Source: Syntrophorhabdaceae bacterium
GTDB taxonomy: Bacteria > Desulfobacterota > Syntrophorhabdia > Syntrophorhabdales > Syntrophorhabdaceae
Direction of reading: 5' to 3'
DNA: 64,000 bases
Assembly (NCBI GenBank): GCA_963666485.2
Contig: CAXXUO010000001.1
Coordinates: 448,001-512,000, forward strand
A program made the position numbers and the translations under genes. Of this stretch, positions 14,726 through 23,981 are shown one piece after another; position 1 is the stretch's first letter, and every line of letters begins with the position of its first letter. The notes beneath the pieces are model-generated. The model worked only from the letters and a program-made list of their open reading frames with translations, searched no databases and had not been told where the DNA came from.

Positions 14726-17700
14726 ATGAAAGATCCGATATCCTCTCTTCAAAAAGATGCCGAAGGCCTCGCAAGGCATATCCTCAGTCGCCATGATTTT
14801 GCGGGTCCTGAGGCTGATGGCGCGGTGCCGGTCGCAGCCGATCTCATACGCGCCCTTGCCGACAGCATAAAAATGATGCAGCCTGCCACCTTCCTCAATG
14901 CCGTTGCCCTCAAACGGGATGAAAGGGCTTCCTTTGTCGACGGTTTCGTCTCAATGCTTGAAGAAGCGGTTATGGAATGGGACATGATATCGCGCCAGAC
15001 ACGCTTCCTCTGGAGTGTTTTCCACGAGGCCCGATCGCAGTCCGTCGTGCCCGGGGAAAATCACGACGAGGGACAGCTGCTGCCGGGTTCCGAACAGTTC
15101 CTGGCCGATATCGCCGACCGTATCCCCGGCATCATTTTTCAATTTTACGCAAAGAACGACGGAACGATGGGGATATCTTATTTAAGCGGCCGGTCTTTCG
15201 AGATCTTTGGTGATGATCCGGCCCCTTCTGAAAGGCTTGACTTTTTTCTTTCCCATGCGGCCCCGTCCTGCAGGCAAGACCTGCTTGAATCGATACAGAA
15301 TGCGGTTGCCAACGAAACTGATTGGGAGTTTGAAGGCGAATACATCAAGGATTCCGGTGAATCCGTATTCTTCTCGGGAAGGTCGACCCCTGTGAGGACC
15401 GGTGACACCCTGCTTTTCACAGGCGTTCTCCTCGACATAACAGCCCGCAGGATAGCTGAAACAAAACTTGTCGAGAGCGAACGAAAATTCAGTGTCATTG
15501 CCGACCTTATGCCCCAGGTCATCTTTGAGGTCGACGAAAAGGTGAACGTCGTTTTTATCAACAAGCGGGCGTTCGAGCTCTTTGGTTACGAGGAGAGCGA
15601 TTTCCCGGAGGGTTTCAATTGCTTCGAGCATATCGCACCGGAAGATCATGCGCGGGCGATGGAAAATATCGAGAAGCTGGCCCGGGATGATGAGTCGTTC
15701 GGAAATGAGTATACCGGGATCAGGAAGGACGACACCCGATTCCCGATCATGATCTACGCAAGCAGGGTCATGCAGGATGGCCGGCTGAAAGGGTATCGCG
15801 GCATCGTCGTTGACATAACGCGGAGAAAACAGGCGGAAGAAGCGGTGAAGGAAGGCGAGGAACGTCTCCGTCAGATCATCGACCTGGTCCCCCACTTTAT
15901 ATTCGCAAAGGATGCGGACGGAAGGTTCATACTGGCGAACAAAGCTGTTGCTGGCGCATACGGTGTCGAGGTCGACGACCTTATCGGCCAGCTGGATCCC
16001 CGTTCTTTCTCGTCCGACCATCAAAGATCCGCCCTGCAGGATGATCTCGAGGTGATCCATAAGGGAACGTGCAAATATATACCGGAAGAAATCATTACGG
16101 ACGCACAGGGGAATATCCGGCATCTACAGACAATCAAGATCCCTTTCACGTTTTCGGGTACGCAGGCGCCCTCTCTTCTCGGGGTGTCCGTCGATATAAC
16201 GGAGAGAAACACAGCCCTGGAAGCCTCAAGAAAAAGCGAGGAGAGATTCAGGAAATATTTCGAAGTCCCGCTCATCGGGGTAACGATCCTCGATCCTTCG
16301 GGGAAATGGCTGGAAGTCAACGACAAATTTTGCGAAATGGCCGGGTATTCCCGCGACGAACTTCTTTCGATGAAATGGCAGGATATCACGCCTCCGGAAG
16401 ATCTGTCCCGGGAAATGGAGAAATACCTTATCTTTCTCGAAGACAGTTCCGCTTCCGTAGCGACCCGCGAAAAGAGGTATCTCCGCAGGGACGGGACCTT
16501 GATCGATGTTATCATTGCAACCCATTGCGTGAGGAAAGACGACGGCACGCCTGATTACTTATTGTGTGTCATCCAGGATATATCGCTCCGGAAAGCGGCT
16601 GAACGGAAAATGGCCCGGTCGGAACAGGAACTGCTCACCATTCTGTCCGCGTCGCCCATAGGTATCGGAAGGGTCCGCGACCGCGTGGTTGAATGGGTCA
16701 ATGAATCGTTATGCGCTATCTCCGGCTATTCGCTGGAGGAATTTACCGGGCGTGATACGAGCTATCTTTATTCAACCCTGGCCGAATACGAAAGGGTCGG
16801 CGAGCAGATCTACCGGGAAGGACAGGCCGAAACACAATGGGTAACGAAAGACGGCCGCATTGTCGATGTCTTGCTCCAGGTGTCACCGGCTGACAAGGGT
16901 GCGTATATATGCACGGTCACCGATATGACGCGCCTGAAGCGCGCGGAGGACTCCCTGAGATTCACACAATTTTCCGTGGACAGTGCCCTCGACAATATCT
17001 ACTGGATGGACGGCGGCGGCCGGTTCGCCTATGTCAATGACAGCGCCTGCAGGTCTACGGGATATAGCCGGGAAGAGCTCCTGTCGATGTCGATCCATGA
17101 CCTCGACCCGAACTACCCGGCTGAAATGTGGCCTCAGATGTGGGAGAAAATTATCAGGACGGGTTCGCGCCAGTTCGAGTCCATGCATCGAAGAAAGGAC
17201 GGCTCCCTTTTCCCTGTCGAGATAAACGTCAGCTATCTCTCTTACGACGAATTCCAGTACGCGTGTGCCTTTACCCGGGACATAACGGAACGCAAGCGGG
17301 CCGAGGAGGCCCTGCGCGAAAGCGAGGAGCGCTGGCAGTTCGCCCTCGAAGGGTCCGGCGATGGCCTGTGGGACTGGGATGTGCCGGGGAAAAAAGTGTA
17401 TTTATCAAAGCAGTATAAGGAAATGATCGGTTTTGCCGACGACGAGTTCCCGGACTCGCTTGGGGAATGGGAAAGCCGCCTTCACCCTGACGATAAAGCC
17501 GATGTTTACGCAAAACTGAACAGCCACCTTGAAGGCAAGTCGCCGGTATACATCAGCCAGTATCGCCTCAGGTCGAAGGACGGCTCTTATAAATGGATCC
17601 TGGACCGGGGCAAGGTGATCACCCGGACCGAGGACGGCAAGCCGCTTCGGGTCATCGGCATCCACACGGACATCACGGAGCGCAAGCACCTTGAGTCGCA

Positions 17701-18835
17701 GCTTCTCCAGTCCCAGAAGATGGAGGCGGTGGGAACGCTCGCGGGCGGGGTCGCGCACGACTTCAATAACCTTTTGAGCGCCATCATGGGGTACGCCAGC
17801 CTTCTCCAGATGAAGATGGACAAGCATGACCCTCTTTACTCCTACGCCGCTCACATCCTGACATCGTCGGAAAAGGCGGCGAACCTTACCCAGAGCCTGC
17901 TTGCCTTCAGCCGCAAACAGGTCATAGACCTCAAGCCCATCGCCTTGAACGACACGGTGGAAAAACTGCACAAACTCCTCGAACGCCTTATCCCCGAGGA
18001 TGTCGAGTTCAAGGTCCAGAAGATCGATGAGCGCCTGATCGTCATGGCCGATGTGGGACAACTCGACCAGGTCATCATGAACCTCGTCACCAATGCCCGT
18101 GATGCCATGCCCCGCGGGGGGAAACTGACCATACGGATAGACCGGGCGGCGGCGAACAGCCGCTTCATGACGACAAACAAGAATGTCGATCTCTCCGATC
18201 ATGCACTCATCGAGATATCGGACACCGGCGTCGGCATGGACAAGAAAACGATCGAAAAGATATTCGAGCCATTCTACACGACCAAGGAACTGGGCCGGGG
18301 GACCGGGCTCGGGCTCTCCATCGTTTACGGCATCATCAAACAGCACAACGGGTACATAGATGTCCGGAGCCAGCCCGGAGAAGGAAGTGTTTTTTCGGTC
18401 TATCTGCCGCTCGTCTGGATGGAGCCCGAGGACGACCGCGACATCTCGCAGATCGTCGGCGGGATAGAGACAATATTGATCGCCGAGGACAACAAAGAAC
18501 TATGCCAGCTTTCGACAAGGGTCCTCCGCGATCACGGGTACAGCGTCCTTGCCGCCATGGACGGATCCGCGGCCGTTGACATGTTCCGCCGACATTCCCA
18601 GGAAATAGCCCTCGTGATCCTCGACGTCGTCATGCCAAAAATGAACGGCAAGGAGGCATACGAGGCCATCAAAAAGCTTGACCCCTCCGCGAAGGTCATT
18701 TTCACCAGCGGGTATACGGATGACATCATCGTCGAAAGAGGCGTCGAGAACGAGCAGTACGACTTCCTGAACAAGCCCCTCACCCCGGCTACGCTGCTTA
18801 GGAAGATACGGGAAGTGCTGGATAGAAGAACGTAA
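14726..18835 (+). CDS. hybrid multi-PAS sensor histidine kinase / receiver
   Basis: about seven PAS/PAC repeats, GTLAGGVAHDFNN, NLVTNARDAM, FYTTKELGRGTGLGL, C-terminal receiver (LIAEDN..LDVVMP..FTSGY..KP). Confidence 0.95.
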   Translation: MKDPISSLQKDAEGLARHILSRHDFAGPEADGAVPVAADLIRALADSIKMMQPATFLNAVALKRDERASFVDGFVSMLEEAVMEWDMISRQTRFLWSVFHEARSQSVVPGENHDEGQLLPGSEQFLADIADRIPGIIFQFYAKNDGTMGISYLSGRSFEIFGDDPAPSERLDFFLSHAAPSCRQDLLESIQNAVANETDWEFEGEYIKDSGESVFFSGRSTPVRTGDTLLFTGVLLDITARRIAETKLVESERKFSVIADLMPQVIFEVDEKVNVVFINKRAFELFGYEESDFPEGFNCFEHIAPEDHARAMENIEKLARDDESFGNEYTGIRKDDTRFPIMIYASRVMQDGRLKGYRGIVVDITRRKQAEEAVKEGEERLRQIIDLVPHFIFAKDADGRFILANKAVAGAYGVEVDDLIGQLDPRSFSSDHQRSALQDDLEVIHKGTCKYIPEEIITDAQGNIRHLQTIKIPFTFSGTQAPSLLGVSVDITERNTALEASRKSEERFRKYFEVPLIGVTILDPSGKWLEVNDKFCEMAGYSRDELLSMKWQDITPPEDLSREMEKYLIFLEDSSASVATREKRYLRRDGTLIDVIIATHCVRKDDGTPDYLLCVIQDISLRKAAERKMARSEQELLTILSASPIGIGRVRDRVVEWVNESLCAISGYSLEEFTGRDTSYLYSTLAEYERVGEQIYREGQAETQWVTKDGRIVDVLLQVSPADKGAYICTVTDMTRLKRAEDSLRFTQFSVDSALDNIYWMDGGGRFAYVNDSACRSTGYSREELLSMSIHDLDPNYPAEMWPQMWEKIIRTGSRQFESMHRRKDGSLFPVEINVSYLSYDEFQYACAFTRDITERKRAEEALRESEERWQFALEGSGDGLWDWDVPGKKVYLSKQYKEMIGFADDEFPDSLGEWESRLHPDDKADVYAKLNSHLEGKSPVYISQYRLRSKDGSYKWILDRGKVITRTEDGKPLRVIGIHTDITERKHLESQLLQSQKMEAVGTLAGGVAHDFNNLLSAIMGYASLLQMKMDKHDPLYSYAAHILTSSEKAANLTQSLLAFSRKQVIDLKPIALNDTVEKLHKLLERLIPEDVEFKVQKIDERLIVMADVGQLDQVIMNLVTNARDAMPRGGKLTIRIDRAAANSRFMTTNKNVDLSDHALIEISDTGVGMDKKTIEKIFEPFYTTKELGRGTGLGLSIVYGIIKQHNGYIDVRSQPGEGSVFSVYLPLVWMEPEDDRDISQIVGGIETILIAEDNKELCQLSTRVLRDHGYSVLAAMDGSAAVDMFRRHSQEIALVILDVVMPKMNGKEAYEAIKKLDPSAKVIFTSGYTDDIIVERGVENEQYDFLNKPLTPATLLRKIREVLDRRT

Positions 18836-20048: not shown

Positions 20049-22235
20049 ATGCCCGAAAAAATAGAGCTTCCGATCACCGGCATGAACTGTGCCGCCTGTG
20101 CCGCCCGTATCGAGAGAGAGCTCAATAAAATGGAGGATGTGAAAGAGGCGCGGGTCAATTTTCCCCTCAAAAAAGCGGTCATCATGCCGAAACATGACCT
20201 CGAGTTGAAAGAGGTCATTACCCGCATCCGCGACATTGGGTACGACGTCGATATAGAAGGCGATATCACGGTCCGCGCTAAAAAGGAAGAAGCCGAACTT
20301 CGGAAGGATTTTACCTGGTCAATTCTTTTAAGCATCCCCATCATGGTCTTTTCCATGTGGATGGTGCTTCCCTACAATAACTATATACTCCTCGTGCTTA
20401 CCCTGCCCGTGCAATTCTATTTCGGCCTGAGATTCCACAGATCGGCCCTTGCAAACCTCAGGCATTTCACCGCGGACATGAACACGCTCATCTCGGTGGG
20501 AACGTCGGCCGCCTTCTTTTACAGCGCTTTCGTGACATTCTTCCCGCACGTCGTCATGGCAGCGGGCGTATCGATGATGACATATTTTGATTCAAGCGCC
20601 ACCATCATCTCGCTCATACTTCTTGGCAGGTATTTTGAATCGAAGGCCAAGACCAGGACATACACGGCCATAAAGCTGCTCTACGAGCTCGCGCCGAAGG
20701 AGTGCATCGTCCTGAAAGACGGGACCGAGACACGCGTACCGACGGATTCCCTCGAGGTCGGGGACATGGTGCTCATCCGGCCGGGTGAAAAAGTCCCGAT
20801 AGACGGCACGGTCGTGGAGGGGAACACGTATGTCGACGAATCAATGATCACGGGAGAGAGCATGCCGGTCCACAAGGCGCCGAAAAGCGAGGTGATCGGC
20901 GGGACCATTAACGGAAAAGGCTCGGTCACGATCAGGACGACGCGTATCGGTGCCGACACGGTCCTCGCGAAGGTGATCCGGCTTGTCGAGGAGGCCCAGT
21001 TCACGAAAGCGCCCGTCCAGCGGCTCGCTGACAGGGTGGCGGGCGTGTTTGTCCCCATAGTCATCGGGATCGGCATCTGCGCCTTTATCGTATGGTTTTT
21101 CTTTGGACCCGAACCAAAGGTCACGAATGCCGTCCTTTCCTTTGTAAGCGTCCTTATCATAGCGTGCCCCTGTGCTCTCGGCCTCGCCACGCCAACGGCC
21201 ATCATGGTCGCAACCGGAGTGGGTGCGAGGCGGGGGATCCTCATTAAGAGCGCCGAGGCCCTCGAGCTGACCAACAGGACCCGCCATGTCCTTTTTGACA
21301 AGACCGGGACCCTTACCGAAGGAACGATCGTCCTGGCGGATATCATCCCCTTCGACCATTGTACGGATGAAGAGGTCCTCCGGATAGCGTACAACCTCGA
21401 GCGGCCTTCCGAGCACCCCTTTTCCGAAGCACTGAGAAAAAAGACGCAGGAGATGAACATCCCGTCGGCCGGCGTCGACAACTTTGAGGCGATTGCGGGA
21501 AAAGGGATCAGGGCAACGGTAGACGGGACAGTTTACCGGATGGGGAACAGGACCTTCTACGAAGATGAAGGAGGCGCCCTCGACGAAAAAGTACTGCACG
21601 TTTATGAAGAAAAAGAGAACTCGGCCGCTTCGCCGGTTATCCTGTGGGACGACTCGGGCATAATAGCCCTTCTGACCTTCAGCGATACCGTGCGCGAAGA
21701 ATCGGCCGGCGTTGTGACCGAACTCAAGAAAATGGGCATCGACCCGGTGATGATAACAGGCGACAGCCAGAACGGGGCGCGATCGATAAGCTCGCGGGTC
21801 GGGATCGACACGTATTTCTCCCGGGTCCTTCCGGACGGGAAGGCATCGATCGTGGAGGATTTCAAAAAGAGGGGCGTCACCATCATGGTCGGGGACGGCA
21901 TCAATGACGCGCCGTCGCTTGCGGCCGCCGACATCGGCGTCGCCATGGGCAAGGGCACGGACATAGCCATAGAATCGGCGGACGTGGTCCTGATGAAAGG
22001 TCAGCTGTCGCGGCTCGTCAGCCTCATAAAGCTCTCAAAAAAGACGATCAGGATCATACGGCAAAACCTGTTCTGGGCGTTTATCTATAACGTTCTCGGA
22101 ATACCCATCGCGTTCGGCGCACTGTATCCTTTCTTCGGTATAAGGCTCGAGCCGATATTCGGCGCGGCCGCTATGGTCGTGAGCTCCATCTCCGTGGTGA
22201 GCAATTCATTAAGGCTCAGGCTGTTCAAAGACTGA
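20049..22235 (+). CDS. copA: heavy-metal (Cu+-type) translocating P1B ATPase
   Basis: GMNCAAC HMA domain, TGES, CPCALG, DKTGTLT, SEHP, GDGINDAP, YN and MxxSS motifs. Confidence 0.92.
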   Translation: MPEKIELPITGMNCAACAARIERELNKMEDVKEARVNFPLKKAVIMPKHDLELKEVITRIRDIGYDVDIEGDITVRAKKEEAELRKDFTWSILLSIPIMVFSMWMVLPYNNYILLVLTLPVQFYFGLRFHRSALANLRHFTADMNTLISVGTSAAFFYSAFVTFFPHVVMAAGVSMMTYFDSSATIISLILLGRYFESKAKTRTYTAIKLLYELAPKECIVLKDGTETRVPTDSLEVGDMVLIRPGEKVPIDGTVVEGNTYVDESMITGESMPVHKAPKSEVIGGTINGKGSVTIRTTRIGADTVLAKVIRLVEEAQFTKAPVQRLADRVAGVFVPIVIGIGICAFIVWFFFGPEPKVTNAVLSFVSVLIIACPCALGLATPTAIMVATGVGARRGILIKSAEALELTNRTRHVLFDKTGTLTEGTIVLADIIPFDHCTDEEVLRIAYNLERPSEHPFSEALRKKTQEMNIPSAGVDNFEAIAGKGIRATVDGTVYRMGNRTFYEDEGGALDEKVLHVYEEKENSAASPVILWDDSGIIALLTFSDTVREESAGVVTELKKMGIDPVMITGDSQNGARSISSRVGIDTYFSRVLPDGKASIVEDFKKRGVTIMVGDGINDAPSLAAADIGVAMGKGTDIAIESADVVLMKGQLSRLVSLIKLSKKTIRIIRQNLFWAFIYNVLGIPIAFGALYPFFGIRLEPIFGAAAMVVSSISVVSNSLRLRLFKD

Positions 22236-22243
22236 CCCGCCGG

Positions 22244-23107
22244 TTATTTCTGCTGCTCGTCGAAATATTTCCCGTTTACCTCCCATCCGATGACAGCAAA
22301 ATCGGCATGTGAGGTTGCAAGCGGATCCGACTTCCAGGAAAAACCGAGTGACGGCACGCTTACCTTTGCTTCCGCCTCGGCCTTTGCCCGGAACCCCTCA
22401 AACCGGAAATGTTTCTGCTTATCCTCGATAACGAGCGCCTCCGGCATCGCTGTCCATACAACCTTCAGGCTCATCACCGCGGGCACATACCGGGCTGTGA
22501 GTTCCGGCCATTTCGGCTGGTCGATGACCGGTGTAACGATCTCAAGGGTCGCCTGTTTCGCGTCGGGCGAGACGGTGAGGCTGCCCTTTGGCACGGGGGC
22601 AACCCAGTACAGCCCCGAAGGCGCGATAGCAGGATGAAAATCGTGGATCTTTTTCCCCCCGGCGACCGCCGGGCCCTCAAAGAGGGTGAGTCATATATGG
22701 GAAAATGTTCCCGCGTGCTCCTGCCGGCCCGCGAAATATTTCCCCTCCATGAAGGAAAAATCGGTGCTGGGGGCCCCGAACGCTATGCGGTTGCCACGAT
22801 CATCAGTTCCCATTCCGGTAAAGGCGTTGCTTCGCGCCACGTGCCCTTTGAAATGGTATATGCTCGACGGTTCCATGCCCGGTCCCGGCGATTGGTTCTG
22901 GCTCCCATTCTTGTCAAGCCAGGGTATCGGGAAAGGATCGCTGCCCCCGTTTGAGGGTTCGCTCCACTCTTCGGCGGTCTGACCAATCCCGTGGTTCGCA
23001 AAAAGAAGGGACGCCCCGGCGATAAGGAGCACGCCCGATCCCATCATTTCGCGCCTCGTCAGACCGTTGATCCCGCCAGGTCTCTTTTTACCGGAATACT
23101 CCATCAT
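22244..23107 (-). CDS. Tat-signal protein with in-frame UGA at codon 139, candidate selenoprotein (287 aa; split in two in the ORF track)
   Basis: GAAGGAGG RBS; LTRREMM plus hydrophobic signal; ..GTFSHI-UGA(22693-22691)-LTLFEGPAVAGGKKIHDFHPAIAPSGLYWV.. stays open in frame to TAA 22244; SECIS-like hairpin follows the UGA. Confidence 0.75.
22658..22690 (-). promoter_or_regulatory. candidate bacterial SECIS element
   Basis: CCCGGC-GGUC-GCCGGG stem-loop with the loop starting 23 nt after UGA. Confidence 0.65.
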
Positions 23108-23238
23108 GGGCCTCCTTCGATCTTTGGTAACATTATCAAAATACTAATCATTTTCCTGCTGCGGGCAAGCATTCCGCCTCGTCCGGCCTTGCAGGGCTTT
23201 CCTTCCGGTACCCGAGACTGTGTCCCAATAAGCCATTA

Positions 23239-23394
23239 CGTCATTCCGCCGGCTTTTGCGGCGGAATCCAGCGTCTTTATCTTCTTTATCCAACTCCATG
23301 GGGAGAAGCATAGTTGTGGCTGTTATCCTATCTTACTGATATTATGGGAGAACAAAACACCAAAGACACTGGATCCCGGCAAGCCGGGATGACG
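23239..23394. repeat. divergent REP-like doublet, copy D
   Basis: CGTCATTCCGCCGGCTTTTGCGGCGGAATCCAG....CTGGATCCCGGCAAGCCGGGATGACG. Confidence 0.7.
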
Positions 23395-23543
23395 GGATGT
23401 AGTTTATATCCATAATTTCCGCACTTCCCTGTGGGAATAAAGACTCTGACACCCGTGGTTTGCCTGGAAATCTATGTACGTTGTAGAATATAGAGGATAT
23501 GTTACAATTCTCGGATAGACCTATTATCAAGGAAGGGGGAGTC

Positions 23544-23981
23544 ATGAAGATACCGGAGTATATTACAAAAGTCGAGGTCACAAGATTCTGCAAGGAGCTG
23601 AAGATCAGGGATTGGGCGAAACTGAAAACCGCGAAGGTATTGCCAAAAGAAGCGAAGGCCATCCTTGCCGCGGTGAACGAGTCAAAGATGAACATCGATC
23701 CGGAAGAATTCCTCAAAGGTCTCGAGGTGGAACTCGAGCACGGCGTCAGGTTCAAGGATGCCAATATCACCAATAACCACCCTCTGGTCACCGGCAAGAT
23801 CGTCATCGCCCATCTCAAGGAGTCCCTGGACTATTACAAGCTTCTCGAAGTAGCGGAGCTTGAGGGCGACCTGCATAAGGCCGTGGTAGCAGGGGATATG
23901 AAAAAGATAAAAAAGGAATACAAGAAATTGGCGCTGGCGAAGATAATTCTGGCGAAAACGGTGGCGGCGCAGGTGAAATGA
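23544..23981 (+). CDS. DUF5661-like protein
   Basis: GGGGGAG RBS; EEFLKGLEVELEHG..NIT..KIVIAHLKESLDYYKLL motif. Confidence 0.8.
   Translation: MKIPEYITKVEVTRFCKELKIRDWAKLKTAKVLPKEAKAILAAVNESKMNIDPEEFLKGLEVELEHGVRFKDANITNNHPLVTGKIVIAHLKESLDYYKLLEVAELEGDLHKAVVAGDMKKIKKEYKKLALAKIILAKTVAAQVK

Follow-up and report, generated by a model that had tools for sequence, protein, structure and literature searches.

We analysed a 64,000-nucleotide stretch of DNA from a Syntrophorhabdaceae bacterium (GenBank assembly GCA_963666485.2, contig CAXXUO010000001.1, positions 448,001 to 512,000), hereafter the window, in which a minus-strand gene at 22244..23107 carries an in-frame TGA that very probably encodes selenocysteine (Sec). 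The gene comprises 287 sense codons and a TAA stop, and we propose that its product is the preprotein of an exported selenoprotein of the twin-arginine translocation (Tat) type. The frame runs from ATG 23107 to TAA 22244-22246 and contains a single internal stop, TGA 22693-22691 on the minus strand. This is codon 139, the proposed Sec codon in GTFSHI-U-LTLFEG; the peptide across it reads TFSHI-U-LTLFEGPAVAGGK, and 148 open codons follow. A ribosome-binding site read from the sequence, GAAGGAGG (23111..23118, minus strand), lies 3 nucleotides upstream of the ATG, and residues 17-22 (23042..23059, minus strand) form a twin-arginine motif, T-R-R-E-M-M, followed by the hydrophobic stretch GSGVLLIAGASLLF. 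No Cys occurs in the 287-residue product. An earlier sequence-only reading of this DNA had described a single frame with one in-frame TGA and 148 codons beyond it, a strong ribosome-binding site and TRREMM motif at the N-terminus, a downstream part lacking a ribosome-binding site of its own, and a Cys-free product of 287 residues, and all of these features were reproduced.

The two open reading frames (ORFs) at 22691-23107 and 22244-22594 are pieces of one common frame and constitute one gene. Its conservation was followed in 82 loci, made up of two genomes (L004 and L005) and the best 80 of 359 confirmed metagenome matches (L007-L086); counts given out of 83 sequences also include the window. 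The two genome contigs came from a genome scan with a single protein and belong to metagenome-assembled genomes titled Syntrophorhabdus sp. and Deltaproteobacteria bacterium UBA5329. A TGA occupies the codon-139 column in 82 of 82 loci, and in 83 of 83 sequences with the window. All 82 loci are colinear over the TGA, with protein identities of 52-77% on both sides, so that both halves of each homologue share one frame joined at a TGA in this column, as the sequence-only reading had expected. When the window was compared with L004, the proportions of nonsynonymous (pN) and synonymous (pS) differences were 0.11 and 0.58 after the TGA, and 0.09 and 0.59 before it. The comparison with L005 gave a pN of 0.12 and a pS of 0.73 after the TGA, and the eight comparisons other than that with L004 gave pN values of 0.12-0.33 for the same part, the overall range of pS being 0.58-0.85. 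The codons past the TGA are under purifying selection and are as constrained as the codons before it, indicating that the TGA is not a defect.

Databases contain this family mostly as truncated halves. A word-indexed search returned 78 database homologues, 57 of which are N-terminal pieces ending exactly at column 138, before the TGA. An exhaustive HMMER search raised the family to 382 representatives at 50% identity. Among 148 newly listed representatives, 16 span the junction and 27 are N-terminal parts ending exactly at the column; the others are N-terminal parts ending elsewhere (36), C-terminal parts only (65) or of another kind (4). Such C-terminal entries, together with the habit of gene callers of giving the halves as separate proteins, would suit a split gene whose halves are translated separately and assembled afterwards. 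However, neither a start codon nor a ribosome-binding site lies near the junction: the earliest possible start past the TGA in the window is GTG 22594, 32 codons downstream, and no Shine-Dalgarno-like run was visible ahead of it when the sequence was read directly. The 32 codons that would be skipped are conserved and include the invariant HDFHP motif, the C-terminal half alone has no signal peptide, and a predicted beta strand (residues 129-144) passes straight through the junction. We consider separate translation of two halves most improbable.

Eleven of the database homologues found by the word-indexed search span the junction, with Trp in eight, Gly in one and Cys in two at the Sec column. 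The database entries P0082, P0107 and P0111 also bear Trp. The sequence-only reading had held that Trp at the junction would refute Sec; since the Trp forms apparently did just that, the underlying DNA was fetched. The Trp-containing protein P0010 is encoded by L018/L019, which have TGA at the Trp position, and P0002 runs beyond the usual stop of the family, that stop also being printed as Trp. The Trp entries (among P0002-P0008, P0010 and P0011) are metagenome gene calls that originate from JGI or Logan contigs with lengths of 1-7 kb. Because of the short contigs, the TGA in the DNA of P0010 and the overrun of P0002, the junction Trp is to be read as TGA translated as Trp, an artefact of gene calling with code 4 that was verified in DNA for one of the eight. 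A junction Trp in metagenome proteins therefore needs a check of the DNA before it is used against selenoprotein candidates, as it could wrongly refute them. Genuine substitutions were also found. Cys homologues, which had been sought at the Sec column, are P0009 (a cluster of 10 members from several contigs) and P0138; Gly is found in P0005, on a 675-kb NCBI contig, Ser in P0080 and Glu in P0081.

These data bear on the possibility that the gene is a pseudogene, or the product of a sequencing or assembly error, in which a TGG or TGC mutated to TGA and only the first 138 residues are made. TGA is indeed one base away from TGG, TGC and GGA, and the eleven junction-spanning proteins do print a sense residue at the column. 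Against this stand the TGA in 83 of 83 sequences read as DNA, down to 52% identity, the purifying selection beyond it, and the tracing of the Trp calls to TGA, with P0002 overrunning its stop. In addition, two separate run assemblies of one sample, which may be the source of the window, show no difference from it over the stretch. A broken or misread gene is accordingly very unlikely.

Downstream of the TGA lies a SECIS-like hairpin (SECIS, selenocysteine insertion sequence), CCCGGC-GGUC-GCCGGG, at 22658..22673 on the minus strand. Its arms are CCCGGC (22673-22668) and GCCGGG (22663-22658), closing the loop GGTC (22667-22664); the 6-bp stem and 4-nucleotide loop have a predicted energy of -11.6 kcal/mol when folded alone. 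The stem begins 17 nucleotides past the UGA and the loop 23 nucleotides past it. The 6-bp GC stem and GGUC loop of the sequence-only reading are thus present, but the 23 nucleotides that it gave as the distance to the stem is the distance to the loop. The same GGUC hairpin is kept in the four closest homologues, which share with the window one extra codon and a hairpin shifted by 3 nucleotides. The large soil group instead forms a 7-bp helix from 13 nucleotides after the UGA, with the loop GGC at +20. Across the family, the loops have an invariant GG followed by U or C.

Pairing was examined in alignment A3, which contains 73 distinct 63-nucleotide stretches beginning at the TGA. Over these 73 rows the 7-bp helix is 94.9% paired, and changes on both sides are found in 5 of its 7 pairs, the pairs with large counts being GC/AU (30:29), AU/GC (41:21) and CG/AU (45:26). 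None of 500 shuffles reached the observed covariation score, and sliding the partner by 1-3 columns lowered pairing to 30-58%. In three covarying pairs, an amino-acid-changing second position (Arg/Gln, Val/Ala and Pro/Gln) stands opposite a synonymous third position (Pro CCC/CCT, Gly GGA/GGG and Ala GCG/GCT, with the frame read from the alignment). As covariation here joins a coding change to a synonymous site, selection on the protein alone would not produce such pairing.

The published constraints on a bacterial SECIS element (bSECIS), as given in the accessible part of the review PMC13188914, are a loop of 3-9 nucleotides with a G in its first two positions, a stem of at least 4 bp, a spacing of 16-37 nucleotides and a minimum free energy of at most -7.5 kcal/mol. 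The window hairpin lies within all four constraints of this bSECISearch consensus (loop GGUC, 6-bp stem, 23-nucleotide spacing and -11.6 kcal/mol), as do the elements of 77 of the 83 family sequences, compared with 68 of 490 control positions placed elsewhere in these genes, at other codons; the six that fail have a mismatch within an otherwise similar stem. A SECIS-like hairpin, for which the sequence-only reading had proposed a test, is thus present, and it covaries. Unlike the consensus, a single family here uses two registers, GGUC at +23 and GGC at +20, and no lower stem or bulge is conserved. A search of 22500-22800 against Rfam at E <= 10 gave one chance row and no SECIS family. Escherichia coli fdhF likewise has GGUC as its apical loop.

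The window genome (G000, 99% complete) contains the machinery for Sec insertion. Two SelA genes (L001, G000:C3:23114-24217; L002, G000:C1:229872-230966) and two SelB matches over the curated cut-off (L088, G000:C3:20129-21340; L087, G000:C4:168611-170485) were found, together with a tRNA-Sec scoring 73.7 bits against a threshold of 47. The SelD gene (L089, G000:C2:512556-513467, minus strand) has an in-frame TGA of its own, in FVRGGG-U-ASKIGPGDL, and downstream of it a hairpin whose loop reads CGGGU; SelD of the window organism is therefore a Sec form. G372 and G401, the genomes that contain L004 and L005, likewise encode SelA. The co-occurrence with selAB that had been asked of a true selenoprotein is thus found, with selA, selB, selD and tRNA-Sec in the window genome and selA in both related genomes. 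TGA is the ordinary stop of 3 of the 11 neighbouring genes in the window, indicating that the codon has not been reassigned. On contig C3, L001 and L088 form a SelA-SelB pair separated by about 1.8 kb. It is uncommon for the Sec-insertion machinery to be duplicated, and the duplication may be linked to the two SECIS registers or to distinct sets of selenoproteins.

We also asked how the UGA could be recoded other than as Sec, by SECIS-independent read-through with a near-cognate tRNA (Trp, Cys or Arg) and with the hairpin as a stimulator. Downstream hairpins can promote read-through in general, the machinery data exclude the acidobacterial carriers, and the Ser, Gly and Glu forms imply that the residue at this column is not strictly needed in all homologues. 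Such read-through is nevertheless improbable. The hairpin has the loop features of a bacterial SECIS element (invariant GG, then U or C) at the right spacing, SelA is found in all three genomes examined, and SelB, SelD and tRNA-Sec are found in the window genome. The TGA is kept in 83 of 83 sequences with no drift to a sense codon, which speaks for a residue that sense codons cannot supply, and the lineages without TGA have long branches. A maximum-likelihood tree of 42 rows places four non-Sec variants inside or beside the Sec-form clade (support 96/97), with terminal branch lengths of 0.5-1.9 where the median is 0.14; according to the program's own warning, the position of such long branches is uncertain. 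This pattern fits a loss of Sec followed by faster change, but the tree has a midpoint root only, which does not prove the direction.

The conserved TGA, the Cys homologues, the Sec machinery and the covarying hairpin agree with the Sec that the sequence-only reading had placed at the junction. We conclude that this is very probably a genuine selenoprotein gene, in which UGA codon 139 would be read as Sec and selenium actually inserted at that codon. The following observations weigh against this conclusion: 1) the bSECIS constraints are permissive, with 14% of the control positions passing; 2) the fold energy of the GC-rich 63-nucleotide window stretch is unexceptional against shuffles (z = -1.13), so that the case for the hairpin rests on conservation and covariation and not on energy; 3) in the five sequences of the window group, the sole compensatory change is that of the outer pair from C-G to G-C in L007; 4) the data on Sec machinery cover three genomes (G000 and, for SelA, G372 and G401); 5) Cys forms are few, a small minority; 6) the Ser, Gly and Glu forms (P0080, P0005 and P0081) show that the Sec residue is dispensable in some lineages, which is unusual for a catalytic Sec; 7) Pfam TAT_signal does not match the window protein; and 8) the gene neighbourhoods give no consistent clue to function.

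A twin-arginine motif with hydrophobic residues at +2/+3 is found in 82 of the 83 sequences, the exception being cut at its 5' end. The consensus of Tat motifs is S/T-R-R-x-F-L-K-like, followed by a hydrophobic region and a cleavage region. Pfam TAT_signal matches 2 of 17 homologues (E 6e-4) and is the only family matched among them, with no other relevant Pfam family; a search of the read-through protein (P0001) against Pfam and NCBIfam returned no family at E <= 1. It is the conserved twin-arginine motif that suggests export by the Tat pathway. Behind the signal, a conserved segment of the mature N-terminus with invariant columns, NGG..PIPWLDKNGSxNQ..EPSxIYHFKG, spans residues 53-88 (22844..22951, minus strand) at a predicted local distance difference test score (pLDDT) of 33-44. 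The AlphaFold2 model (ma1ebda4561a8), built from a 36-row alignment, has a mean pLDDT of 76.7. Residues 1-81, including the conserved PIPWLDKNGSxNQ, are modelled without confidence, and residues 82-287 (22247..22864, minus strand) form a predicted all-beta barrel of twelve strands with block pLDDT values of 75-98. The fold would be a soluble beta-barrel.

Sec139 falls within the predicted strand 129-144. Several residues around it are kept among the 83 sequences: H85 in 83, H137 in 82, H155 in 82, D156 in 83, H158 in 83 and H70 in 81. From the strand pattern, H137 and Sec139 appear to share one face of the strand, with H155 diagonally across on the next; the HDFHP residues H155 and H158 would belong to that adjacent strand, and H85 to the beginning of the first one. 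The window protein departs from the family at two conserved positions, making it an atypical member there: residue 70 (22898-22900, minus strand) is Gln where 81 of 83 sequences have His (SHNQ motif), and residue 93 (22829-22831, minus strand) is Ser in place of the Cys that 69 of 83 sequences carry (VARC motif). An essential partner Cys for Sec was considered and ruled out, since the window protein lacks the Cys93 of those 69 sequences; a selenenyl-sulfide pair is thus not essential.

Comparison of the model with known structures led to generic folds. Foldseek found no match in the PDB at E <= 0.001, and a profile search against PDB sequences gave only chance-level rows (E 0.3). A wide VIA-align search with domain 84-279 returned generic small beta-barrels, the best being NspA (1p4t_A; Z 9.6, rmsd 4.0 over 139 aligned residues), with lower scores for hemophilin (7re4_A; Z 7.0), YceI (3q34_A; Z 5.7) and nitrobindin (3ia8_B; Z 5.5); hemophilin/SLP barrels and AttH are also among the soluble 8-stranded barrels likened to the domain. 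Identities to the matched barrels are 2-14%, with Z in the range that the tool calls a 'common arrangement', and kinship or a shared function with them cannot be claimed from the model. The fold described earlier as unknown is now predicted to be a generic beta-barrel, still without a relative in Pfam, NCBIfam or PDB sequences.

Taken together, we propose the following course of expression. Translation would begin at ATG 23107, and SelB with Sec-tRNA(Sec), tethered to the GC-rich hairpin 17-33 nucleotides downstream (loop GGUC), would insert Sec at UGA 22693-22691. Insertion in place of termination would yield the 287-residue preprotein, which the Tat pathway would export by its twin-arginine signal, presumably in folded form. 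In the mature protein, the conserved segment of about 35 residues would lead into a soluble beta-barrel of some 200 residues, with Sec139 in the middle of a strand near H137, H155, H158 and H85.

As to function, binding of a metal or cofactor at a site centred on Sec and His is a tentative guess, somewhat short of an even chance, and a periplasmic catalyst of redox or chalcogen-handling reactions is a doubtful one. A conserved signal of Tat type, clustered histidines and the lack of a partner Cys lead us to favour, with low confidence, a Sec/His metal or cofactor site over an oxidoreductase of the thiol type. A bolder version, which we hold to be rather unlikely, is that of a Sec-dominant family, widespread in soil metagenomes of Acidobacteriota type and present in Syntrophorhabdaceae, whose lone strand Sec, ringed by four near-invariant His, would be a new kind of metal or cofactor centre with selenium as a ligand, put together in the cytoplasm before export by Tat.

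The mechanism appears to be that of an ordinary bacterial selenoprotein gene, and the newness to lie in the family itself, which appears to be a large, unnamed and apparently new family of selenoproteins. If this is true, the bacterial selenoproteome would gain a large family, with 382 representatives and no fewer than 359 metagenome loci. Sec forms strongly outnumber Cys forms in it, although Cys homologues of selenoproteins are as a rule far more abundant, according to the accessible part of PMC13188914. Two N-terminal fragments carry the NCBI names Candidatus Angelobacter and Candidatus Sulfotelmatobacter, both Acidobacteriota. In a phylum-wide search, 2 of 401 sampled genomes (counting G000) carry the gene, within the window's own genus only. 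A protein atlas queried with the natural Cys homologue P0009 gave scores of at most 0.82, which are leads without weight. No similar family of Tat-signal or acidobacterial hypothetical selenoproteins was found in the literature searched, although it may be listed as a 'hypothetical protein' in BSepDB or in other supplements; a motif search that covered BSepDB Table S1 found nothing. Public databases hold the family almost entirely as broken halves or code-4 mistranslations, so that the use of selenium in soil is undercounted, especially in Acidobacteria-like organisms. Its traits are unusual for a selenoprotein, with no CxxU-type motif, Sec in a beta strand, a Tat-type signal and few Cys counterparts, and they make it a good test case for selenium-requiring sites and a possible instance of a new Se-His active site.

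Selenoproteins that leave the cytoplasm by the Tat pathway are already known. The catalytic subunits of periplasmic formate dehydrogenases of the FdnG/FdoG/FdhA type have an in-frame Sec-UGA, a SECIS hairpin directly downstream and a twin-arginine signal for exporting a folded protein, and the window gene would combine its probable Sec-UGA, adjacent hairpin and putative twin-arginine signal in the same way. Those proteins are molybdopterin/Fe-S enzymes of about 1000 residues in which Sec ligates Mo or W. By contrast, the window protein has 287 residues, no recognised cofactor motif and no relation to them in sequence or fold. The families of Haft (bioRxiv 10.1101/2022.07.06.499078), in the accessible part of that preprint, share the signature of database proteins that end at the Sec site while the frame continues. 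They have CU motifs or known domains, whereas in the window family Sec stands alone in H-I-U, without a Cys close by. The accessible text of the preprint (10.1101/2022.07.06.499078) yielded no mention of a twin-arginine motif, a Tat signal or Acidobacteria.

On the side of its stop, the selenoprotein gene converges on a CopA-like P-type ATPase gene with one HMA domain (20049-22235, plus strand), which terminates with TGA at a distance of 8 bp from the selenoprotein gene's TAA. This spacing agrees with the sequence-only reading; the adjacency, whose meaning that reading had left open, is not a meaningful one. The convergent neighbour in L004 and L005 is a Kup K+ transporter gene, which in the congener L004 stands between the selenoprotein gene and a P-type ATPase beyond it; adjacency to a P-type ATPase is lacking at most metagenome loci, whose scanned neighbours include a single P-type ATPase fragment (L066) and a single multicopper oxidase (L069). 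A copper or heavy-metal locus, with the ATPase as a clue to function, was rejected, as the ATPase linkage is not conserved. On the other side, a divergent DUF5661-like gene (23499-23981, plus strand; Pfam E 6e-7) is conserved in position and direction in L004 and L005. The selenoprotein gene of the closest relatives stands alone between this divergent gene and a convergent one, and the conserved place of the DUF5661-like gene indicates that the selenoprotein gene is probably monocistronic. A 158-residue ORF upstream of it (23342-23818, minus strand) is probably a shadow of the DUF5661-like gene.

In 18 of the 82 loci, a DUF302 protein is encoded next to the selenoprotein gene on the same strand, often within 0-50 nucleotides or overlapping (L015:2072-2908, L077:1933-2910, L009:1542-1946, L034:1016-1402 and 14 more). 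It occurs alone, with 128-152 residues, or fused to DUF202, with about 280-325 residues; no DUF302 gene was seen beside the window's copy. DUF302 is a domain without a known function, for which the accessible part of PMC5037610 speculates on sulfur oxidation. Ferritin/Dps, rubrerythrin, peroxiredoxin, thioredoxin-like protein, pyridine-nucleotide-disulfide oxidoreductase, rhodanese and cytochrome P460 each occur among 1-2 of 101 scanned neighbours, a scatter that hints at redox stress. Elsewhere in the window, a gene at 14726-18835 (plus strand) encodes a large hybrid sensor kinase of 1369 residues, which contains five or more PAS domains together with HisKA, HATPase and a receiver domain.

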